A DNA stretch of 35,783 nucleotides from a virus. A program made the position numbers and the translations under genes. The stretch's first letter is position 1. Every line of letters begins with the position of its first letter. Below, one piece after another: positions 2,184-15,143 of the stretch. The notes under the pieces were generated by a model, which was given only the letters and a program-made list of their open reading frames with translations, ran no database searches and was not told the DNA's origin. The stretch lies in the UHGV virus genome UHGV-0117379; one strand, 5' to 3'.

Positions 2184-2840
2184 CTATTTAACATACTTGA
2201 CTGTTAAACTTATAATTTTACCAATTATTTCAATGTCTTCTATCTTGCATTCGAAGGCTCTGTTTCCACCCTCGACGAAGATTCTTCCACCGGGTAAACG
2301 AGTAATGTCACGGATCGTTATTTCGCCATCAATACTTATTACCCATTTACCATCACGTATATCATCAAATTCTTTATCACAAATAAATTCAGAATTGTTA
2401 TCTGTGATGACAAAAGGTTTTTTAAACGTAGAGGGTAGAAATCCCTTATCAAAAATATAAAAACCGTCTTTCTGCAATGCTCCATCAGACAATAAATATT
2501 TTTCTACTTCTATAGTATTTGTATTTGCTGATGCTTGCTTTGAACCATGCCCTGTTGTTAGCCAATTAAGCGAGGTGCCCGTTTCAAGGGCGCACTGGAT
2601 TACCCAATCTGCTGGAAAAATATCACGCATATAGCGCGTTGCCATGGTGCTCTTAGAAACACCTAAATGATCACAGAGAGCCTGACGAGTACCGAACCCA
2701 TATGCTTCAACTAAACGTTCTATGGCTTTCTTACCGCCGCTATTGAAATCCACAAGTCCTCCAAAGAAATCCAAAATTCGTTGACAGATTCCAAAAGCGA
2801 TCTTAAAGTTGAACCAGAAGTGTTCTTTTGGAGCCTTCAC
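2184..2840 (-). CDS. cI: Phage CI-type repressor (186 CI-like, HTH N-terminal domain)
   Basis: HTH-like segment LGVSKSTMATRYMRD; position and orientation match the P2/186 immunity repressor, divergent from apl. The ORF starts at GTG 2840; true start uncertain. Confidence 0.7.
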   Translation of the reverse strand: MKAPKEHFWFNFKIAFGICQRILDFFGGLVDFNSGGKKAIERLVEAYGFGTRQALCDHLGVSKSTMATRYMRDIFPADWVIQCALETGTSLNWLTTGHGSKQASANTNTIEVEKYLLSDGALQKDGFYIFDKGFLPSTFKKPFVITDNNSEFICDKEFDDIRDGKWVISIDGEITIRDITRLPGGRIFVEGGNRAFECKIEDIEIIGKIISLTVKYVK

Positions 2841-2898
2841 TACTAATCACGACAAACAACGGCTCGCCACAAGCCATATCTAGAAGGAATGTTGCCTT

Positions 2899-3102
2899 AT
2901 GACACCTAACATTTCAATTACTCTGAATACACCACATGTCACAATCGAACGTTATAGCGAACTGACTGGCCTTTCTATTGATACGATTAACGACATGTTG
3001 GCTGATGGCCGACTACCTCGTCATCGTCTTCGTAAAGACAAAAAACGTGAAAAGGTAATGATTAACCTGGCTGCTCTGACTGTTGATGCTTTGTCTGCTT
3101 AA
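2899..3102 (+). CDS. apl: Apl/Cox-type excisionase / regulator
   Basis: 67-aa ORF with ATG 2899 and AAGGA RBS, first gene of the rightward early operon opposite cI. Confidence 0.7.
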
Positions 3103-3166
3103 TAGACGTCTATTTTCGCAATAAGACGCTGAGTTCGATTTTGCGATAAGTTCGGAGTTGAAAACC

Positions 3167-3676
3167 ATGTTTGATTACCAAGTTTCCAAACATCCACATT
3201 TTGATGAAGCCTGTCGTGCATTCGCACTGCGCCACAATCTGGTGCAACTGGCAGAACGTGCGGGCATGAATGTGCAGATTCTGCGGAACAAGCTGAACCC
3301 AGCTCAACCTCATTTATTAACCGCACCAGAAATCTGGCTGCTTACCGATCTGACTGAAGATTCAACGTTGGTAGATGGTTTTCTGGCACAGATTCATTGT
3401 CTGCCATGTGTACCGATTAATGAGGTAGCAAAAGAGAAACTGCCACATTACGTCATGAGTGCAACCGCAGAGATCGGGCGTGTTGCTGCAGGTGCGGTAT
3501 CTGGCGATGTAAAAACCAGTGCAGGTCGTCGTGATGCTATCAGCAGCATTAACTCTGTAACACGACTGATGGCGCTGGCGGCTGTTTCATTGCAGGCCCG
3601 TTTACAGGCTAATCCTGCGATGGCGAGTGCAGTTGATACCGTGACTGGCCTCGGTGCTTCATTCGGTTTGCTGTGA
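3167..3676 (+). CDS. cII: Phage CII-type regulator (186 CII-like)
   Basis: Track ORF starts at TTG 3158; ATG 3167 (GGAG RBS) gives 169 aa beginning [20 protein letters not shown], which I remember as closely matching 186 CII. Confidence 0.8.
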
Positions 3677-3683
3677 GGTGCTT

Positions 3684-3980
3684 ATGCTGACGAAAGAACC
3701 ATCATTTGCATCGCTGCTGGTAAAACAAAGCCCGGCAATGCACTACGGTCACGGCTGGATCATGGGTGAGGATGGTAAACGCTGGCATCCGTGCCGTTCA
3801 CAAGATGAATTGCTGTCTGAATTGACCACGGGGAAACGGAGAAAGTCAAAATGTATGCAGCGGAAAGTGAAGTGGTTTATCAGTTTCGTTACAGAGGGGA
3901 GAGTTATTCAGTACCTGAAGATGATTTGCTCTGTTGTTATCCGTCGTTGTCGGGCGATGGCAGTTACTTTTTCACGCTAA
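3684..3980 (+). CDS. Hypothetical early protein
   Basis: ATG 3684 follows GAGGTG RBS directly after the cII stop. The second half of this frame is Cys/Arg-rich and low in complexity and overlaps ORF 3851..4075, so the 3' extent is uncertain. Confidence 0.4.
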   Translation: MLTKEPSFASLLVKQSPAMHYGHGWIMGEDGKRWHPCRSQDELLSELTTGKRRKSKCMQRKVKWFISFVTEGRVIQYLKMICSVVIRRCRAMAVTFSR

Positions 3981-4075
3981 AGGATGGGACGTTTTTACGG
4001 GGAGAGCAGGTTAAAGAGACGATACGAAAAAATGTATCTCCTCTTGAACGTTACCGTAAGAGCAAAGAACGATAG
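3851..4075 (+). CDS. Hypothetical early protein (74 aa)
   Basis: ATG 3851; protein-like composition (MYAAESEVVYQFRYRGESYSVPEDD...); overlaps the previous ORF by about 130 nt in another frame. Confidence 0.5.
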   Translation: MYAAESEVVYQFRYRGESYSVPEDDLLCCYPSLSGDGSYFFTLKDGTFLRGEQVKETIRKNVSPLERYRKSKER

Positions 4076-4097
4076 TTGCGTTTTGGGGATATGAATT

Positions 4098-4439
4098 ATG
4101 GCAATTAATGGCGCTGCGGCGACTGTTCCATTAAGCCCCGGTGAACGCCTGAATGGACTTAATCACATTGCGGAGTTAAGGGCGAAAGTTTTTGGCCTGA
4201 ATATTGAGTCAGAGCTTGAGCGGTTTATTAAAGATATGCGTGATCCACGGGATATCAATAGCGAACAAAATAAACGGGCACTGGCTGCCATATTCTTTAT
4301 GGCAAAAATTCCAGCTGAACGTCATAGCATCAGCATTAATGAGCTGACCACTGACGAAAAGCGGGAGTTGATTAAAGCAATGAATCATTTTCGTGCAGTG
4401 GTGAGCTTATTTCCCAGACGGCTAACCATGCCGAATTAA
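4098..4439 (+). CDS. Hypothetical phage early protein (113 aa)
   Basis: ATG 4098 with GGGGA RBS; sits within the early operon. Confidence 0.65.
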   Translation: MAINGAAATVPLSPGERLNGLNHIAELRAKVFGLNIESELERFIKDMRDPRDINSEQNKRALAAIFFMAKIPAERHSISINELTTDEKRELIKAMNHFRAVVSLFPRRLTMPN

Positions 4440-4506
4440 CCAGCTAATGAAATTAATGGCGTAAACCCGCCGGGCATCCCTTTATCTAAATTCAGGAGAA
4501 TTGATT

Positions 4507-4740
4507 ATGCGTAATATTGAAACCCTCACGACTAAAACCGGACCGGATGACGCAGGGCTTAATATTTTACTGACAGAGGCTCGTCTGGAAGAACGCCGGG
4601 CAAGGGCTGAAGCAATGGCTGCCCGCCTTGATAGTCTTGCGTGTCATATCACATCCCGCCAGCTAAACCACGTCGAAGCGGCAGAACTGCTGCGTGTGAC
4701 CGCTGAAGCAATCCAGAACGAAGCGCAGGAGATCCACTAA
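4507..4740 (+). CDS. Hypothetical phage early protein (77 aa)
   Basis: Track ORF starts at TTG 4501; ATG 4507 follows CAGGAGA RBS; stop overlaps the next start (TAATG). Confidence 0.6.
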   Translation: MRNIETLTTKTGPDDAGLNILLTEARLEERRARAEAMAARLDSLACHITSRQLNHVEAAELLRVTAEAIQNEAQEIH

Positions 4741-4967
4741 TGGCTGATGCAATGGATCTCGTACAGCAGCGCGTTGAAGAAGAACGCCAGCGCCATATCC
4801 GTGCTGCCCGTGCCAAAACACCGGGCGTGTCTCGCGTGCTTTGCATTGAATGTGAAGCGCCAATTCCGCCAGCACGCCGCCGCGCCATTCCAGGAGTGCA
4901 GCTTTGCATTACCTGTCAGGAAATCGCAGAGCTGAAAGGCAAACATTACAACGGAGGTGCTGTATGA
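4740..4967 (+). CDS. TraR/DksA-family C4 zinc-finger protein
   Basis: CIECEAPIP...CITCQ four-cysteine motif; short protein in the P2-like early operon. Confidence 0.7.
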
Positions 4968-5266
4968 CAGGGGCTGTGCGTATCCATCAATTAAAAATTG
5001 CACCTAAGTATTTCAACGCTGTGGTTGCAGGTCAAAAGACGGCTGAACTTCGTAAAGACGATCGTGGCTATAAAGTTGGTGATGTTCTTTCTCTTTGCGA
5101 ATGGAAGCATGGCGTATTTACGGGTAGGGAATGGGCCGCGGTTATCTCTCATGTGCTTCCGGTTAATGACGTCATGGCAGTTTCAGAACAATGGGTGATG
5201 CTATCAATTCGCTCATTAACCCCATTAGAAGCTTTAGGATATGTTATTGCAGGAGGTGCTGTATGA
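4964..5266 (+). CDS. DUF3850/ASCH-like small protein
   Basis: ATG 4964 overlaps the previous stop (ATGA) with GGAGGTG RBS; the family assignment is from memory of the sequence pattern. Confidence 0.55.
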
Positions 5267-6120
5267 GCACCATCCTGAAATGGGCGGGTAATAAAACCAC
5301 CATTATGTCCGAACTGAAAAAATACCTTCCTGCTGGCACGCGACTGGTTGAACCTTTCGCGGGTTCTTGTGCTGTGATGATGGAGACGGATTACCCCAGC
5401 TATCTGGTTGCGGATATTAATCCTGATTTAATCAACCTCTATAAAAAGGTTGCTGCTGATTGTGAGGCGTTTATATCTCGTGCCAGAGCTTTATTTGAGG
5501 AAGCAAACAGAGAGGTGGCTTATTACAACATAAGGCAGGAGTTTAATTACTCCACTGAAATTACTGATTTCATGAAAGCGGTATATTTTCTGTATCTCAA
5601 TCGTCATGGTTACCGTGGGCTATGTCGCTATAACAAGAGCGGGTATTTCAACATTCCCTACGGTAATTATAAAAATCCGTATTTCCCTGAAAAAGAAATT
5701 CGCGCATTTGCAGAGAAAGCCCAGCGGGCAACGTTTATCTGCGCCAGCTTTGATGAAACGCTGGCGATGTTGAAGGCGGGGGATGTGGTGTATTGCGATC
5801 CGCCTTATGACGGTACGTTTTCCGGCTATCACACTGATGGCTTCACTGAAGATGACCAGTATCACCTGGCATCCGTTCTTGAACATCGATCATCTGAAGG
5901 TCATCCGGTCATTGTTTCTAACAGTGACACATCCCTGATCCGTTCGCTGTATCGCAATTTTACTCACCACTACATCAAGGCAAAACGCAGCATCGGCGTG
6001 GCAGCTGGTGAGAGTAAATCTGCAACAGAAATCATCGCTGTTTCCGGGCCGCGCTGCTGGGTAGGATTTGATCCTTCGCGTGGCGTGGATTGTTCCGTCG
6101 TGTACGGAGTGCGTGCATGA
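5263..6120 (+). CDS. dam: DNA adenine methyltransferase (Dam family, N6-adenine)
   Basis: N-terminal LKWAGNK...PFAGS AdoMet motif and catalytic DPPY motif ([10 protein letters not shown]); ATG 5263 overlaps the previous stop; AGGAGGTG RBS. Confidence 0.85.
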
Positions 6121-8531
6121 GCCATGCTGATATGAACAACTGCAGCGGCTTTAACGAGGTCGCCGCAGCATTCTCATGGAACAGCCCGAAAAAGGCCATT
6201 AACCCTTATCTGGACCCGGCGGAAGTTGCGCCGGTTTCTGCGCTTTCAAACCTGATCACTCTGTACGCTGCCGATAACGAGCAGGAACAACTGCGCCGCG
6301 AGGCACTGAGTGATCAGGTCTGGGAGCGTTATTTCTTTAATGAATCCCGTGATCCTGTCCAACGCGAAATGGAGCAGGATAAGCTAATTAGCCGGGCAAA
6401 GCTGGCGCATGAGCAGCAGCGTTTTAATCCAGACATGGCCATTCTGGCGGACGTCAACGCCCAGCCTTCCCATATCAGCAAGCCGCTGATGCAACGTATT
6501 AAATACTTCAGCAGCCTGGGCAGGCCAAAGGCTTATTCCCGCTATTTGCGTGAGACGATTAAGCCATGCCTGGAACGACTGGAGCATGTACGCGACAGTC
6601 AGCTATCCACTTCTTTTCGCTTTATGGCAAGCCATGAAGGGCTGGACGGCCTGCTGATCCTGCCTGAAATGAGTCAGGATCAGGTGAAACGCCTGTCCAC
6701 CTTGGTAGCTGCGCATATGAGCATGTGCCTTGATACAGCTTGTGGCGATTTGTATGCCACCGATGATGTTACGCCAGAAGAAATCCGCAAGACATGGGAA
6801 AAGGTGGCAGCGGAAACCCTGCGTCTGGATGTTATCCCGCCTGCGTTTGAGCAACTCCGTCGGAAAAGAAACCGCCGTAAACCCGTGCCTTATGAACTCA
6901 TTCCTGGTTCGCTGGCGCGTATGTTATGCGCCGACTGGTGGTATCGGAAATTATGGAAGATGCGTTGCGAATGGCGGGAAGAGCAGTTGCGTGCTGTTTG
7001 CCTGGTCAGCAAAAAAGCATCTCCCTATGTCAGCTATGAAGCCGTGATGCATAAACGTGAGCAGCGCCGTAAGTCGCTGGAGTTTTTCCGTTCTCATGAA
7101 CTGGTGAACGAAGACGGCGACACGCTGGATATGGAAGACGTGGTAAACGCCAGCAGCAGCAACCCTGCGCATCGCCGCAATGAGATGATGGCCTGTGTTA
7201 AAGGTCTGGAGCTTATCGCGGAAATGCGCGGTGACTGCGCCGTTTTCTACACCATCACCTGTCCGTCACGTTTCCATTCCACGCTAAATAACGGCAGGCC
7301 CAACCCGACCTGGACAAATGCGACGGTAAGACAAAGCAGTGATTATCTGGTCGGTATGTTTGCTGCATTTCGTAAGGCGATGCACAAAGCCGGATTACGC
7401 TGGTATGGCGTGCGGGTGGCTGAGCCGCATCATGACGGTACAGTTCACTGGCACCTGTTGTGTTTTATGCGCAAAAAAGATCGCCGCGCCATTACTGCTT
7501 TGTTGCGTAAGTTTGCCATTCGTGAAGACCGCGAGGAGCTGGGTAATAACACGGAACCACGCTTTAAGTCTGAGCTGATAAACCCGCGCAAAGGTACGCC
7601 AACAAGCTACATCGCGAAATACATCAGTAAGAACATTGACGGGCGTGGTCTGGCTGGCGAGATCAGCAAGGAAACGGGTAAATCCCTGCGTGATAACGCC
7701 GAATACGTTAATGCCTGGGCGTCTCTGCATCGTGTTCAGCAATTCCGCTTCTTTGGCATTCCGGGGCGTCAGGCTTACCGTGAACTGCGATTGCTGGCTG
7801 GTCAGGCGGCAAGGCAACAGGGGGACAAAAAAGCAGGTGCGCCGGTACTGGATAACCCGCGCCTTGATGCCATCCTGGCTGCCGCTGATGCTGGCTGTTT
7901 TGCCACCTACATCATGAAGCAGGGCGGCGTACTGGTTCCCCGCAAATATCACCTCATCAGAACCGCTTATGAAATCAACGAAGAGCCGACCGCCTATGGC
8001 GATCACGGTATTCGTATTTATGGCATCTGGTCACCCATTGCAGAGGGCAAGATCTGCACTCATGCGGTGAAGTGGAAAATGGTTCGTAAGGCCGTTGACA
8101 TTCAGGAGGCGGCAGCCGACCAGGGCGCTTGCGCCCCTTGGACTCGTGGCAATAACTGTCCCCTTGCTGAAAATTTGAACCAACAAGGGAAAGACAAATC
8201 AGCTGATGGGGATACCAGAACGGAGATCACCCGCATGGATGACAAGGAGTTGCACGATTACCTGCACAGTATGAGCAAAAAAGAGCGCCGGGAACTGGCA
8301 GCAAGGTTACGCCTGGTGAAACCGAAATGGCGTAAAGACTACAAACAGCGAATTACAGAGCATCAGCGTCAGCAGCTCGTCTATGAACTGAAGTCCAGAG
8401 GATTTGATGGCAGCGAGAAAGAGGTCGATCTGCTCCTTCGCGGTGGCAGTATTCCGTCAGGAGCAGGCCTGCGTATCTTCTATCGGAACCAGCGTTTGCA
8501 GGAAGATGATAAGTGGCGGAACCTGTATTAA
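6117..8531 (+). CDS. A: Replication initiation endonuclease (P2 gpA-like, rolling-circle HUH type)
   Basis: ATG 6117 overlaps the dam stop; HUH-like motif HWHLLCF and paired-tyrosine motif [10 protein letters not shown]; about 800 aa, at the P2 gpA position. Confidence 0.85.
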
Positions 8532-8623
8532 TTACGCGGGTTAACAATTCGTGCTCTTAATAATACCAGGCATATCAGGCTGATGAACGTAAAAAAACGT
8601 TTTACATCAGTAAGATTATTATA

Positions 8624-8643
8624 TACTGTAAATATAAACAGTG
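8624..8643 (+). promoter_or_regulatory. LexA (SOS) box TACTGTAAATATAAACAGTG overlapping a putative promoter
   Basis: CTGT-N8-ACAG with AT-rich spacer at 8626-8641; about 45 bp upstream of the ATG at 8685; candidate -35 TTTTAC (8600-8605) and -10 TATACT (8622-8627). Confidence 0.6.
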
Positions 8644-8684
8644 GCTATACATACAGTGTTGCGTGTGGTGTCATAGGAGGAAAG

Positions 8685-8873
8685 ATGCAGGACTATTTTT
8701 TGGAGTCTTTGAAGCTCCAGCGCATTGATTTTTTTCTTAAGCTTGTAGCGGCTAGTGAGTGTAGTGATGAAGAGAAGGGGCTGGCTTTGCAATGGGTTTC
8801 TGAACTGACAGATGAACTCATGGCAAAAATCAGAACCCACGAATACAACCGCTCAATGGATGTCATCAGCTGA
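8685..8873 (+). CDS. Hypothetical small protein (62 aa), first gene of the LexA-box unit
   Basis: ATG 8685 with AGGAGG RBS (track ORF starts upstream at 8583). Confidence 0.5.
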   Translation: MQDYFLESLKLQRIDFFLKLVAASECSDEEKGLALQWVSELTDELMAKIRTHEYNRSMDVIS

Positions 8874-8883
8874 GGTGACTTTT

Positions 8884-9117
8884 ATGCGCATTGAAATAAT
8901 GATCGATAAAGAGCAGAAGATTAGCCAGTCTACCCTGGACGCCCTTGAATCCGAGCTTTACCGCAATCTGCGCCCCCTGTATCCCAAGACGGCGATCCGC
9001 ATTCGCAAAGGCAGTGCCAACGGTATCGAGTTGACCGGCTTAAAACTTGATGAGGATAAGCAGCGGGTAATGGAAATTATGCAGCAGGTCTGGGAAGACG
9101 ACAGCTGGCTGCATTAG
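8884..9117 (+). CDS. DinI-family protein (Tum-like SOS module)
   Basis: ATG 8884 with GAGGTGA RBS; MRIEIMID...KQRVMEIMQQVWEDDSW resembles E. coli DinI (MRIEVTIAK...KQRISEILQETWE), recalled from memory. Confidence 0.75.
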   Translation: MRIEIMIDKEQKISQSTLDALESELYRNLRPLYPKTAIRIRKGSANGIELTGLKLDEDKQRVMEIMQQVWEDDSWLH

Positions 9118-9403
9118 CGAACGTTGCGGACGATAAAACTGGCTTTTACCGTCCGCAAGGTTGAACAACGAGCCGTGCGAGGCGTTAGAAATTGCCTTTG
9201 TTAGTGCCTGCTTCTCATAAGAGGCACTATATATGCTAAATGCAGTGGTTTAAGGCAGAAACATCTTGCGCGATTAGGGGCAATGAACTTAAGTTAAGTA
9301 ACGCAACCAACAGTTAAAACGGTTGTCTTAGTTATAAGGAACTTGCTGTTGTGGTTGCTGGTGACGAAGTGTACACTTCCGCGCCGTATAAGAAGGAGGG
9401 GTT

Positions 9404-9622
9404 ATGTCAAGTATCGCCGCATTGAAGCTGGGTAATCCAGTTGAACGTTTGGCACGGGTTCTGAAAGAGAACCAGGACAAGCTCAATCTGAGTAAAGATG
9501 GTTTTGTGTCCGTAGATTTGTCCAACGAAGAAGCTATGAAAGCCATCCGAGATCAGATGGATAAGCTTGAAGGCATCAAAACGAGCACTGTTAAAGCAAA
9601 ATATTATTACAGAACCCGATAA
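9404..9622 (+). CDS. Hypothetical small soluble protein (72 aa)
   Basis: ATG 9404 with AAGGAGGGG RBS; stop overlaps the next start (TAATG). Confidence 0.6.
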   Translation: MSSIAALKLGNPVERLARVLKENQDKLNLSKDGFVSVDLSNEEAMKAIRDQMDKLEGIKTSTVKAKYYYRTR

Positions 9623-10464
9623 TGGCAACATTACTTTTAGCAGTGATTTTGGTTAGTGGTTTTATATATGTAAACCTATCACTTTCAACACGTTATAGAT
9701 ATAAGCGTTCCAATGGCTGGGACGCTTATTTTTTTGTGGCTGCATGGGGAATTGTCTTTTTCCTCGCTGGCGGCTTCCTTACCTTCGCTCTTAACATCAG
9801 CGGTGGGTTTCGCTGGTTTTCTAATGCGCTGAATCTGACTCCAGACAGCTTTAACGGGATGTTATCCACCACAACCGATAAACCGCAGCGCATCAATGAA
9901 ATTAAGCAAATCGCGTGGGTTGTGATTTCAATAGTTCTCGCGGCGCTGTTCGGTTGGCTAAACAAACGCCGTACTTCAAAAGGGGATCGCCGTTGGGATG
10001 CACTGGCAAAGGCAGTGGGAAACAATGCTTTTGAATCGCTGCTCATGGAAGCATCAGCTCGCCAGTTTCCTATCATTGCTACACTTTCATCACGCAAAAT
10101 CTATGTAGGGCTGGTGACTTGCCCTGCGTTGGAAAATGGATTGTCGGAACACCTTGAAATTCTCCCCTTGCTGAGCGGATATCGTGATAAAGACGACCTA
10201 ACGATAAATATCACGACAAACTATCATCAGCACTATCTTGATAGCGGTGTTATCAATGGGATGTCGCGCCTGAATATCCAGGATTTCCGTGTGCTTCTCC
10301 CTAAAGATGAAGTTGAAACCATCTCGTTTTTTGATACTGAAACGTATAACAAATTTAAAGAAAACGAAGCGCGTGACCGGAAAGACTGCCGCAAGTTGGG
10401 TGGTAAAAAGCCATCCGCACGCAGGAGAAAGACTGCTGGCGACGCAGAGCAGGGTAGTGCATGA
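9622..10464 (+). CDS. Membrane protein with three predicted N-terminal TM helices, unknown function
   Basis: Hydrophobic segments LLLAVILVSGFIYV, AYFFVAAWGIVFFLAGGFLTFAL and IAWVVISIVLAALFGWL, then a roughly 170-aa soluble domain; AT-rich. Confidence 0.65.
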   Translation: MATLLLAVILVSGFIYVNLSLSTRYRYKRSNGWDAYFFVAAWGIVFFLAGGFLTFALNISGGFRWFSNALNLTPDSFNGMLSTTTDKPQRINEIKQIAWVVISIVLAALFGWLNKRRTSKGDRRWDALAKAVGNNAFESLLMEASARQFPIIATLSSRKIYVGLVTCPALENGLSEHLEILPLLSGYRDKDDLTINITTNYHQHYLDSGVINGMSRLNIQDFRVLLPKDEVETISFFDTETYNKFKENEARDRKDCRKLGGKKPSARRRKTAGDAEQGSA

Positions 10465-10512
10465 CTATGCTGCATGAATTTGCATGATCGTTTGAGGATC
10501 GTTTTAGCTCCG

Positions 10513-10537
10513 GCCCGCCAGTTCAGGCGGGCTTTTT
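10513..10537 (+). terminator. Rho-independent terminator (GCCCGC-loop-GCGGGC followed by TTTTT)
   Basis: Read directly: stem 10513-10518/10527-10532, T-run 10533-10537, about 50 nt after the membrane-protein stop. Confidence 0.6.
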
Positions 10538-10581
10538 CATATCTCATGCAGGTGCATGAAAACCACTACACAAAGCGGGCA

Positions 10582-10600
10582 GGCGTGGCGGGGATACGAG
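10582..10600. other. Putative cos cohesive-end sequence GGCGTGGCGGGGATACGAG
   Basis: First 13 nt identical to the P2/186 cohesive-end consensus GGCG(A/T)GGCGGGGAAAGCA as I remember it (15/19 to 186). Preceded by five copies of TGCATGA. Confidence 0.4.
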
Positions 10601-10665
10601 CGCGCGCTCATTACTTTTATAATTCTAGGGTTATAATACAGGGCTATCTTTCTAGGAGAAAACAC

Positions 10666-12318
10666 ATGTCCTTAGAGTTTATCAAAGAACAGTTGTCAGA
10701 TTTTATCTCATCTACAGAACCAGAAGTAATGGCTATACAGGGTGAATGGGGAATTGGTAAAACCTATACTTGGAATACGTTCCTAAAAGATAATAAAGAT
10801 AAGGTTGCATTTAATAGATATAGTTATGTCTCTCTTTTTGGTATAAATTCACTAGATTCTTTAAAGTATTCTATTTTTGAGAATGCAATTACAAAGGAAT
10901 ATATTGGAAATAAACCTGATTTGGAGACAGCAACAACAAACGCAAGTGGACTTTTTGAATCGTTTTCTCGAAAAGCCGCAGGTTTGTTAAAAGAAGCTCC
11001 TGTTGTAAAAAACTTCTCTACGACACTTGAAGCAATGTCATTTCTGACCGTTTCTAAAATGATTGTAGTAATAGATGACTTAGAAAGGCGTGGCAAAAAC
11101 TTAGATGTTAAAGATGTTTTAGGGCTAGTATCTCTATTAAAGGAGCAGAAGGATTGTAAGGTGGTTCTATTGCTTAACAATGGCACAGCTAGTATGGAGG
11201 ATTATTCTACTTATAAAGAAAAGGTCATTGATAGAGATATCACTTACAATCCAACACCAGAAGAATGCGCAGATATAGCCTATAAAGGTGATTTTCATGT
11301 TTATAACTTGTTAAGTAAATATTCCATTTCTTTAGGTATCAAGAATATTCGAATCTTAAAAAAGATAGAACGTTTTTTCGTGTCCTTAACACCAAATATT
11401 ATAGGTGATGTTGAGACAATTTCAAATGAAGTTGCGCATTCATTAACTCTGTATTGTTGGAGCCATTACGGATTTTCTCCAGAGGGAGATGTGCCATCAC
11501 TAGAATATATTAGGGGAGTGAGGAATATATATACTTATAATGACAAGGAAGAAGGCCATGAGAAAGTCTGGCTTAATACCTTGCTTAAATATGGATATAG
11601 AAAAACGAATGATCTTGATGAGGTTCTTATTGATATGGTTAGATATGGCTATCTTGATAAGAGCAGTTTCCAAAGACAAATAAGCCTAAGGAATGAGGAG
11701 ATTACGCGTGATAATAAACGAGGTTCCTTATCTGAGGCATGGCAGTTCTTTCATAATTCATTTGATGACAATCAAAATCAGGTTGTTGACAAGCTATATC
11801 AAGCGGTGGTTGATGGGATGAAGTATGTGACTCCAAGTGATTTAGATAATGTTGTCGGACTATATAGGGATTTCGGAGAGAATGCTAAGGCGAGTGAATT
11901 GATTGAACAGTTTATTAATTATGGTAACGATGCTCTAAAGGAATATGTTCAATCTATTTATGTGAATGTTCATCCCGTAAGAGATGCTGAGTTGTTGTCA
12001 AAAATTCAAGCCTATTCTAATATTATAAATATTGATGGTTCAATATATGATGTTCTTAAGAAATTATCAGGTCAGAATGGTTGGTCTGATAGACATGAGG
12101 AAATATTGGATGCTGCTTCAGTAGATGACTACTATCAATTATTTAAAAATGTCATTCTTGATGGTGGTGATTCAATAATAGCTACGGCGCTTAAATTCGG
12201 AAATTATAGTAATGGTTCTGATAGAATGAATCGTATAGGGAAAAAGGCAAGGGATGCCTTGATAAGAATTGGAGATGAATCGGCGATTAATAAAATACGT
12301 GTAAGGCGATTTTTGTGA
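10666..12318 (+). CDS. KAP-family P-loop NTPase (candidate defence cargo)
   Basis: ATG 10666 with AGGAG RBS (track ORF starts at 10474). Walker A GEWGIGKT and KAP-type Walker B VVIDDLERR; AT-rich; own TATAAT boxes (10618-10623, 10632-10637) and a downstream terminator. Confidence 0.75.
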   Translation: MSLEFIKEQLSDFISSTEPEVMAIQGEWGIGKTYTWNTFLKDNKDKVAFNRYSYVSLFGINSLDSLKYSIFENAITKEYIGNKPDLETATTNASGLFESFSRKAAGLLKEAPVVKNFSTTLEAMSFLTVSKMIVVIDDLERRGKNLDVKDVLGLVSLLKEQKDCKVVLLLNNGTASMEDYSTYKEKVIDRDITYNPTPEECADIAYKGDFHVYNLLSKYSISLGIKNIRILKKIERFFVSLTPNIIGDVETISNEVAHSLTLYCWSHYGFSPEGDVPSLEYIRGVRNIYTYNDKEEGHEKVWLNTLLKYGYRKTNDLDEVLIDMVRYGYLDKSSFQRQISLRNEEITRDNKRGSLSEAWQFFHNSFDDNQNQVVDKLYQAVVDGMKYVTPSDLDNVVGLYRDFGENAKASELIEQFINYGNDALKEYVQSIYVNVHPVRDAELLSKIQAYSNIINIDGSIYDVLKKLSGQNGWSDRHEEILDAASVDDYYQLFKNVILDGGDSIIATALKFGNYSNGSDRMNRIGKKARDALIRIGDESAINKIRVRRFL

Positions 12319-13377: not shown

Positions 13378-15143
13378 CAAAAAATCTCCACAATATTACT
13401 GGTATTGGCGGACTCGCCCTGCAGTGGTTCGTTAAACAGTGCGTGCATTGTTGCCCACGCCAGATCGGCGTGGCTGGTTTCTTCGCTGCGGCTGGCTTCA
13501 TACGTCGGGCGGTTGCCACTGGCGGTGGTGGCGCGACGGATTGCCATGAATGACTGCGCAATGTCGGTGTGCCCGGCGTCAAACTCCAGACGGCGGTGGC
13601 TGATAATGTCGTAGGCCTTGAGTACCAGAGCGTTTTTAACGTTGGGGTTGTAGACAAACTCCCGGACGGCAGGAAAAAACGCTTTCACGTTCTCGTAAAC
13701 CCCGTGACCGACGCCGGTTGAGTCGATACCGATGTATGTCACGTTGTACTGTTCAGTCAGTTTTTTGATGGCGTCAGCCTGGGCGCGGAAGTCCATCCCG
13801 CGCCACTGGTGACGCTCAAGAATGCGGAACTTACCGCCCGGCACGGCTGGCGGTGCCACCACCACGCACCCGGCGCTGTCGCCGTTTTGCGTACCTTTTG
13901 CCGGGTCATAACCGATCCACACTTCGCGCCAGCCAAACGGGCGCAGGGCCAGTGCATGAAAGTCGGTCCAGACTTCCCAGCTGTCCACCATGCACGCCTG
14001 CAGCTCGCTGAGCGGAAACACGGACGCGAGATCGTCCACAAACTCGCACATCAGCAGGTTCTGGTATTCGTCCGGGCTGTACTCCATGCGCAACTGGTCG
14101 AGATCGAACAGGTTACATCCGCCGCGCACAGCATCTTCCACGGTGACTATCTGGCGGTATTGCCCGTCTGCGCACAGCAGGCCGGGGGCCAGATTGCTGT
14201 GGGACAGGTCGATGTCCACCTTATCGGCTTTGTTGCGCCCACGGTTGAACAGCGCACCGGACCAGAACGGATAAGCACTGTGTGTCAGGCTGGATGGTGT
14301 GGAAAAATAGGTTTGTCGCCATTTTTTGTGAATAGCCATACCGGAAGCCACTTTGCGCAGCTCCTGGAATTTCGGTATCCAGAAATATTCATCCAGATAC
14401 AGGTTGCCGTGGTAACTCTGGGCCGTGCGGGCATTGGTGCCGAGGAAGTAAAGCGTAGCCCCGTTAGGAAGCACCATCGGATCGCCTTTCAGCTCCACTT
14501 CCACTTCTTTGGCGAAGTCGATGATGTACTGTTTAAAGACGTGGGCCTGTGCCTTACTGGCGGAAAGGAAAATCTGGTTACGTCCGGTAAGCAGGGCGTC
14601 AATCAGGGCTTCACGGGCAAAGTAAAAGGTCGCGCCGATCTGGCGTGACTTCAGCAGGTTGCGGATGCGGTTGGTTTTTCCGGCTTCCCACCAGTGGCGC
14701 TGGTAGTTGAACATGGAGGAATGGAAGATTTCTTCCAGCTTCGCAATCTGTTCATCGGTGAAAACGTTCTTTTCCGGCTGACGACGCGGGCCTTTGTTGC
14801 GGTTGGCGACGTTAGGGTTTAAGTCGGCTTCGTTGCCGCCATTGTTAAACTTGCCGATCCGCGCGTGGCGCTCCGACTGGCGCGCCAGCAGGTCAATCTC
14901 TTTGAAATCTTTCCCTTCTTTGTGCTCCTTCATGATGAGCTGGCAGTAGCGTGCGGCGGTGGTGAGCTGCATCTGATCCAGCGGCCCATAGTCACCCCAC
15001 TTGTCGCGTTTCTTCCAGCTGTGAACGGTTGCAACTTTCTCGCCCAGCATTTCAGCAATGCGGGCTACGCGATATCCCTGAAAGTACAGCAGCATGGCCT
15101 GCCGACGGGGATCGAGATCTGCGGATGTCAGTGTGGTGTTCAT
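13377..15143 (-). CDS. P: Terminase large (ATPase) subunit (P2 gpP-like)
   Basis: 588 aa, ATG 15143; immediately upstream of Q on the same strand and divergent from the O operon, as in P2. Confidence 0.85.
   Translation of the reverse strand: MNTTLTSADLDPRRQAMLLYFQGYRVARIAEMLGEKVATVHSWKKRDKWGDYGPLDQMQLTTAARYCQLIMKEHKEGKDFKEIDLLARQSERHARIGKFNNGGNEADLNPNVANRNKGPRRQPEKNVFTDEQIAKLEEIFHSSMFNYQRHWWEAGKTNRIRNLLKSRQIGATFYFAREALIDALLTGRNQIFLSASKAQAHVFKQYIIDFAKEVEVELKGDPMVLPNGATLYFLGTNARTAQSYHGNLYLDEYFWIPKFQELRKVASGMAIHKKWRQTYFSTPSSLTHSAYPFWSGALFNRGRNKADKVDIDLSHSNLAPGLLCADGQYRQIVTVEDAVRGGCNLFDLDQLRMEYSPDEYQNLLMCEFVDDLASVFPLSELQACMVDSWEVWTDFHALALRPFGWREVWIGYDPAKGTQNGDSAGCVVVAPPAVPGGKFRILERHQWRGMDFRAQADAIKKLTEQYNVTYIGIDSTGVGHGVYENVKAFFPAVREFVYNPNVKNALVLKAYDIISHRRLEFDAGHTDIAQSFMAIRRATTASGNRPTYEASRSEETSHADLAWATMHALFNEPLQGESANTSNIVEIF

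Follow-up and report, generated by a model that had tools for sequence, protein, structure and literature searches.

An orphan Dam-family adenine methyltransferase ahead of replication gene A in a P2/186-like prophage, and its likely part in keeping phage GATC sites methylated

The DNA analysed here is virus genome UHGV-0117379 (35,783 nucleotides; "the window" means this whole stretch), a complete P2/186-like prophage with a host TetR-family gene on its left flank. Directly before its replication gene A lies dam, which encodes an orphan DNA adenine methyltransferase of the Dam family. Our results suggest that this enzyme is, with good probability, a GATC-specific product of the lytic operon that is made together with the A protein and keeps the phage's own DNA methylated; a further step at the cohesive-end site (cos) is less certain. 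There is no novelty in the gene itself, which is a known, widespread and already annotated prophage gene: its description dates from 1990, and thousands of genomes carry it as an annotated gene, a fact that went unnoticed by the reader who made the earlier note on this DNA. The window Dam is the orthologue of the Dam of the retron Ec67 prophage, carried here in a P2/186-like (Felsduovirus-type) E. coli prophage. What bears on its function is a contrast between sister lineages with the same replication machinery, which either carry dam and have GATC near background or have no dam and have lost at least two thirds of their GATC sites. The gene, its motifs and its junctions are the following.

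5263..6120 including the stop codon, plus strand: dam, orphan Dam-family N6-adenine DNA methyltransferase of 285 residues (PF02086, TIGR00571, E. coli Dam structures, PADLOC)
5356..5370, plus strand: motif I, binding S-adenosylmethionine, F32-A-G-S-C36 (alignment to E. coli Dam; N-terminal to motif IV)
5797..5808, plus strand: catalytic motif IV, DPPY, residues 179-182 (aligns with the DPPY of E. coli Dam)
5251..5256, plus strand: Shine-Dalgarno sequence AGGAGG of dam, 6 nt before the ATG and within the last codons of the DUF3850 gene (sequence reading)
5263..5266, plus strand: ATGA overlap of the DUF3850 stop codon (5264-5266) with the dam start (sequence reading)
6117..6120, plus strand: ATGA overlap of the dam stop with the A start, GCATGAGCC, the presumed translational coupling site (sequence reading)
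6117..8531, plus strand: gene A, P2-type rolling-circle replication initiator (PF05840, E 3.2e-128)

The assignment to the Dam family is carried by several models. PF02086 matched with 257.3 bits (cutoff 22; E 2.3e-76) over the whole model, positions 1-253 of 253, and TIGR00571, the NCBIfam model of the Dam subfamily, with 320.9 bits (cutoff 114.85). The structures of E. coli Dam, 2g1p and 4gol, matched residues 4-263 at E 4e-73, and the best PADLOC model was that of an orphan methyltransferase (oMTase, 6.4e-111). Against NF008152, the equivalog model for the housekeeping Dam of Enterobacterales, the window Dam scored 287.9 bits, under the cutoff of 441, and it is thus a member of a paralogous phage lineage and no copy of the host gene. 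The chromosomal Dam of E. coli (2G1P, 4GOL) has the same fold family, motif order and DPPY, and about half of the residues, judged by eye, are identical over 260 aligned positions. Unlike E. coli Dam, which belongs to the host dam operon, the window Dam is borne by a phage in a lytic operon and ends in a tail of 22 residues that does not align. The neighbours of the gene encode a DUF3850 protein and gpA, neither of them a nuclease, and the enzyme is thus an orphan methyltransferase without a restriction partner alongside. The earlier note had described a Dam-type adenine methyltransferase with a DPPY motif, placed directly before A with overlapping stop and start codons; the family and structure matches bear out the type, and the placement is exact to the base, the ATG of dam lying at 5263-5265, its TGA at 6118-6120 and the ATG of A at 6117-6119, within GCATGAGCC. 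A longer open reading frame (ORF) starting at 5191 was rejected as dam, since the homologues have 285 residues and the alignment with E. coli Dam begins at residue 4.

In the alignment of the phage clade, D179, P180 and Y182 of the catalytic motif are invariant and P181 is nearly so. Motif I reads EPFAGSC (residues 30-36) where E. coli Dam has EPFVGAG, so that the final glycine is replaced by a cysteine, and the motif is invariant, its cysteine included, in 16 members of the clade. The residues with which E. coli Dam reads GATC are K9, Y119, N120, L122, R124, P134, Y138 and R249 (PMC4417163), and by alignment seven of these eight contacts are identical in the window Dam (K6, Y117, L120, R122, P132, Y136 and R242). 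The shared contacts are invariant in the 16 clade members, R242 being checkable in the first sequence only. From these residues we strongly infer that the window Dam is specific for GATC.

The closest described relative is the Dam of the retron Ec67 prophage (M.Eco67Dam; Hsu, Inouye and Inouye 1990), which has the same length of 285 residues; the window Dam is 94% identical to the protein labelled "retron EC67 DNA adenine methylase". According to PMC7826664, Hsu et al. 1990 reported the Ec67 prophage enzyme as a Dam methylase that methylates the adenine of GATC, and Dodd and Egan 1996 located such retrons between cos and a terminator of a 186-related prophage. The Dam genes of Fels-2, RE-2010, 4LV2017 and Cartapus are 94-96.5% identical to that of the window. 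In the Ec67 and phage copies the gene has the same place, between a DksA-like zinc-finger gene and A with 4-bp overlaps, and unlike these copies the window has a DUF3850 gene between the zinc-finger gene and dam. The Ec67 prophage is of the same kind in another respect, as PMC7826664 (citing Dodd and Egan 1996) describes cargo between its cos and portal gene; that cos-adjacent cargo is the retron in the Ec67 prophage and a P-loop protein in the window.

The exact sequence of the window Dam is present on 670 public contigs under the name "MULTISPECIES: DNA adenine methylase [Enterobacteriaceae]". The 1.7-kb dam-A segment was found in 1244 of 5426 complete E. coli genomes, about a quarter, with a 100% match in strain C51, and in 58 phage records, among them Fels-2, RE-2010 and many Klebsiella prophages, where the gene's annotation reads DNA adenine methylase. 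When one genome per species was scanned, relatives with 49-100% identity appeared in about 70 species of Enterobacterales; where the contig was long enough, gpA followed dam (75 of 80 loci), and a zinc-finger gene preceded it in most. These relatives mark the phage Dam clade as a long-standing resident of the early operon of the P2 family. The hosts of this phage family include Escherichia, Klebsiella, Salmonella and other Enterobacterales. As a side observation, the 90%-identity cluster of the window Dam also holds gpA proteins of 804 residues, and some database entries are Dam-gpA or Dam-gpD fusions; these resemble artefacts of gene calling or clustering, or products of prophage deletions, and are probably not true fusions.

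The comparison that told most was that of GATC content across genomes. The window has 113 GATC sites against 119.6 +/- 9.7 in dinucleotide shuffles, and is thus neither enriched nor depleted; its observed/expected ratio by the Markov estimate is 0.71, similar to that of other palindromes. Ratios were calculated from a third-order Markov expectation for 80 Dam-carrying loci and 80 dam-less 186-like loci. GATC stood at 0.80 (3.5 per kb) in the Dam-carrying group versus 0.33 (1.25 per kb) in the dam-less group, a gap of 0.47, while seven other 4-bp palindromes showed group differences no larger than about 0.25, and five of them (CATG, GTAC, CTAG, GGCC and AATT) by 0.14 or less. Among dam-less phages outside the 186-like set, the ratio was 0.20 in P2 and 0.23 in Wphi; in 69 Dam-carrying prophages of other species it was 0.74-0.82. 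Phages 186 and P2 are thus strongly depleted in GATC, unlike the window, and the same can be seen within the homologous gene A, which has 11 GATC sites in the window, 2 in 186 and 1 in P2. Some smaller differences were recorded for other palindromes: TCGA stood at 0.92 in Dam-carrying and 1.16 in dam-less loci, ACGT at 0.84 and 1.02, and GGCC at 0.56 and 0.70, respectively.

Selection against GATC in enterobacteriophages has been attributed to the action of MutH on unmethylated sites (McClelland 1984; Deschavanne and Radman 1991; both as cited in PMC5014478), and the same paper describes the DNA of the rolling-circle phage phiX174 as poorly methylated by the host Dam. The comparison made here suggests that a phage-borne Dam may let its carriers keep their GATC sites by lifting the pressure to purge them.

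The time at which the enzyme would be made can be judged from its position. An integrase gene and a 186-type CI repressor gene lie on the minus strand ahead of the plus-strand early genes, which run in the order apl/cox, cII, fil-like, DUF5347, DUF2732, DksA/TraR zinc-finger gene, DUF3850, dam and A. The series from apl through cII and fil to the zinc-finger gene, a variable slot and A agrees with the order annotated for the early lytic (pR) operon of phage 186, and a promoter-like site lies just upstream of apl.

2781..2809, plus strand: probable early lytic promoter (pR-like), TTGACA-17-TAAAGT, the only 10/12 match on the plus strand in 2700-10700, positioned as pR of 186

No plus-strand promoter-like site was found between 2810 and 8531. 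Since dam is part of the early lytic operon and no separate promoter is predicted for it, it should be silent in the lysogen and transcribed only in lytic growth, from the repressor-controlled early promoter. A GATC site at 2799-2802 falls immediately before the -10 hexamer of that promoter.

The overlap with A is a persistent feature of the gene. ATGA joined dam and A in all 80 close relatives from IMG/VR. Among 74 prophages of other species, at least 35 had an overlap of ATGA or GTGA, and ESSI-2, with a Dam of only 50% identity, has the same four-base overlap. In 186 (orf84-A) and P2 (orf83-A) the gene directly before A likewise overlaps the A start, and according to the record of phage 186, A seems to be translated only when the gene before it is translated to its end. 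The presence of the overlap, its conservation and the precedent of 186 orf84-A together argue that dam and A are probably coupled in translation. Of what the earlier note had claimed about expression, placement in the early operon is borne out by the synteny with 186 and the single strong promoter-like site upstream of apl; of the statement that dam is translationally coupled to A, the stop/start overlap and its conservation stand, and the coupling itself is best regarded as presumed.

These observations can be joined in a simple explanation. Transcription of dam would be confined to lytic growth by the repressor-controlled early promoter, and ribosomes that finish dam would re-initiate on A, so that the methylase and the rolling-circle initiator are produced together. 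The additional Dam activity may then keep fast-made phage DNA fully methylated where the host Dam lags behind. Full methylation would spare the phage the costs of unmethylated or hemimethylated GATC, namely nicking by MutH, binding by SeqA and restriction of unmethylated GATC, and the dam-less relatives would escape the same costs by purging GATC from their genomes. As a second and less certain step, methylation of a GATC-N7-GATC element beside cos may affect packaging.

Several observations weigh against this explanation. The E. coli Dam contact N120 is replaced by R118 in the window Dam, an arginine that is invariant across the phage Dam clade, and the proposed GATC specificity draws on homology and on the 1990 report on the Ec67 enzyme as cited in PMC7826664. 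The link between Dam and tolerance of GATC is drawn from few independent dam-less lineages (186-like and P2/Wphi), has exceptions in ENT90, which has no dam and a GATC ratio of 0.61, and ESSI-2, which has dam and a ratio of 0.56, and is a correlation in which cause may run in either direction. Adjacency of dam and A is common and not required, as 18 of 74 species-level prophages have a further ORF between the two genes. Finally, a hairpin early in A (about 6212-6238) that would parallel the tM1 terminator of 186 was no stabler than shuffled sequence (z = 0.01).

Whether methylation also matters at packaging turns on the region left of cos, which has the following features.

10582..10600, plus strand: cos cohesive-end sequence, GGCGTGGCGGGGATACGAG (13/13 match to the start of 186 cos; conserved block)
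10458..10484, plus strand: three TGCATGA-type repeats left of cos (same repeat type beside cos in P2, 186 and ENT90)
10486..10500, no strand assigned: GATC-N7-GATC, two cos-proximal Dam sites at 10486 and 10497, 11 bp apart centre to centre
10510..10537, plus strand: terminator-like structure of a GC-rich hairpin and a T-run, with the GATC pair on one side and cos on the other

The placement of cos is based on sequence similarity with the cohesive ends of 186 and P2, on a 150-bp block conserved with Fels-2, RE-2010 and others, and on the end of the SEN8 record, which corresponds to 10581. At 10582 it lies upstream of the cargo gene, whereas in P2 cos adjoins the portal gene; a cos at the P2 position, between the 614-residue ORF and the portal gene, was rejected as no match with three or fewer mismatches was present there. 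A further TGCATGA stands between the hairpin and the cos cleavage site, and the layout of repeats and hairpin left of cos is common to P2, 186 and ENT90. The claim that two GATC sites occur in cos-proximal repeats proved correct: they belong to an 11-bp direct repeat, GATCGTTTGAG and GATCGTTTTAG, at 10486-10507, and lie 85-96 bp left of GGCGTGGCGGGGATACGAG.

A pair of GATC sites 11 bp apart is ordinary by chance, as 113 sites in 35.8 kb lead to an expectation of about 4 adjacent pairs at 11 bp or less (Poisson), and it is conservation in relatives that makes the cos-proximal pair more than a chance occurrence. On one alternative reading the methylase would serve mainly to gate packaging: the methylation of GATC-N7-GATC would be read by the terminase or by SeqA or another host protein, so that only fully methylated, late-replicated DNA is cut and packaged, as at the packaging site (pac) of P1. 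Both sites are invariant in 9 phages, one of which has a different spacer, and the element is kept in 79 of 89 unique cos sequences of the window's type (type I) despite 19 different 7-nt spacers. It comes straight after the TGCATGA repeats, a feature shared at cos with P2, 186 and ENT90, and it recurs in two Xenorhabdus prophages (L246 and L251) with another cos type. None of 74 dam-less 186-like loci has it, and the 200 bp left of cos hold no GATC in P2 and 186 and one in ENT90. Yet the 130 bp nearest cos are free of GATC in 18 of 56 Dam-carrying prophages from other species, and one site of the pair is point-mutated in several close relatives (L020, L060, L077 and L080). Because no dam-less phages with the window's cos type were found, the co-occurrence of dam and the GATC pair is confounded by shared ancestry and may reflect the common descent of few lineages. 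The first GATC, moreover, overlaps a TGCATGA repeat, possibly explaining part of its conservation, and a binder at the pair is only putative. Phage P1 offers the precedent, being likewise a temperate enterobacterial phage with its own GATC methylase (Dmt) and with GATC in packaging-site repeats that need Dam methylation (PMC12707154, PMC10028697); P1, however, packages by the headful from a pac with seven TGATCA/G hexamers, while the window has cos and only two GATC sites, and the dependence of packaging on methylation is shown for P1 and putative for the window phage. We consider gating of packaging as the main function possible but rather improbable. The same tentative standing applies to the broader idea that the phage Dam and the cos GATC-N7-GATC may form a methylation switch that times or licenses packaging, with dam coupled to the initiator as an alternative to GATC purging. 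The suggestion in the earlier note that the methylase may tune replication and packaging has therefore gained some indirect comparative backing, from the genome-wide tolerance of GATC and the conserved pair at cos, while keeping the status of a hypothesis.

Two other roles were weighed. The methylase could pre-methylate progeny against enzymes that cut unmethylated GATC or against other defences that sense unmethylated DNA, a role that has been put forward in general for orphan methylases which phages express as they leave the cell (PMC12707154). Expression from the lytic operon would give the right timing, and 113 GATC sites in the phage genome would need protection. The Enterobacterales hosts of this phage family, however, already carry Dam, so that most progeny DNA should carry the methylation in any case, provided that the host enzyme keeps pace with replication, and enzymes cutting only unmethylated GATC are, to our knowledge, uncommon in these hosts. 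Full methylation of GATC would, in addition, make the DNA a target for DpnI-type enzymes, which depend on methylation, and we regard protection from restriction as an unlikely main function. Dam overproduction changes gene expression in E. coli and Salmonella, and the enzyme might on that ground act as an epigenetic regulator in the lysogen, altering host genes as a form of lysogenic conversion. This was among the roles raised by the earlier note and is the least likely of them, indeed very improbable: dam is buried deep in an early lytic operon under repressor control and lacks a predicted promoter of its own, its presumed translational tie is to the replication initiator, which a stable lysogen cannot express, GATC is already methylated by the host, and the lysogenic-conversion genes of the family occupy other slots (cos-Q and G-FI).

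We favor, over these alternatives, the maintenance of methylation on phage DNA during lytic growth. The clean natural contrast between sister lineages lends support to a long-standing view, that enterobacterial phages pay a price for unmethylated GATC, and provides a simple genetic system in which to test it. If the GATC pair at cos were read in a methylation-dependent manner, epigenetic control of packaging in the style of P1 would extend to cos phages. In the literature searched, we found no description of either the methylation switch or the alternative of dam versus purging for P2-like phages.

The surroundings of dam upstream of A form a variable slot, which in the window is bounded and filled as follows.

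4740..4967, plus strand: DksA/TraR-type zinc-finger gene, the conserved neighbour upstream of the slot (PF01258, E 3e-11; synteny with P2 orf82 and with 186)
4964..5266, plus strand: DUF3850/ASCH gene, an additional cassette lying after the zinc-finger gene and before dam (PF12961, E 1.1e-23)

The slot from the zinc-finger gene to A is filled in P2 by a DUF5405 gene, in 186 by three accessory genes (exonuclease-like, DUF5405 and PAPS-reductase-like), in RE-2010 by dam alone and in the window by DUF3850 and dam. In 186 and P2, as in the window, the slot holds non-essential accessory genes, and in neither of those two phages is there a methylase among them. The DUF3850 cassette is missing in most relatives, including those of the RE-2010 type. 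In the window two direct copies of a 13-bp sequence, AGGTGCTGTATGA, bound it (4955-4967 and 5254-5266), and this repeat is a duplicated coupling junction made up of the Shine-Dalgarno sequence and ATGA; because AGGTGCTGTATGA is duplicated, the zinc-finger and DUF3850 proteins both end in GGAV. The DUF3850 homologue of P2 and Wphi (orf91) is located after gene A. A specific link between DUF3850/ASCH and dam was considered and rejected, since homologues adjoin A in dam-less phages as well.

One further feature lies inside gene A.

8132..8159, plus strand: sequence resembling the nick site of the P2 ori (23/28 identities with the annotated nick region of P2 by blastn, E 0.03)

This P2-like nick sequence contains no GATC, the nearest sites being at 8051 and 8225. 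Elsewhere, two GATC sites 6 bp apart (15110-15119) fall within the opening codons of terminase gene P, next to the divergent P/O late-promoter region. Rfam families gave no match across the whole window.

The cargo gene between cos and the portal gene (10666-12318) encodes a P-loop protein of 550 residues that matched the PADLOC candidate defence family PDC-S49 (E 4.5e-28). In relatives the same slot holds an AIPR protein, a retron St85 effector or a TIR protein. The ORF of this gene in the program-made list extended back to 10474, across cos, and is misleading in that respect. On the other side of cos, between it and a DinI-like gene, 9404-10464 contains two overlapping ORFs of 72 and 280 residues, the latter apparently membrane-associated. 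Neither had a Pfam, NCBIfam or PADLOC match; genes of similar size are listed at the same position in a Klebsiella Fels-2-like prophage in PMC7826664.

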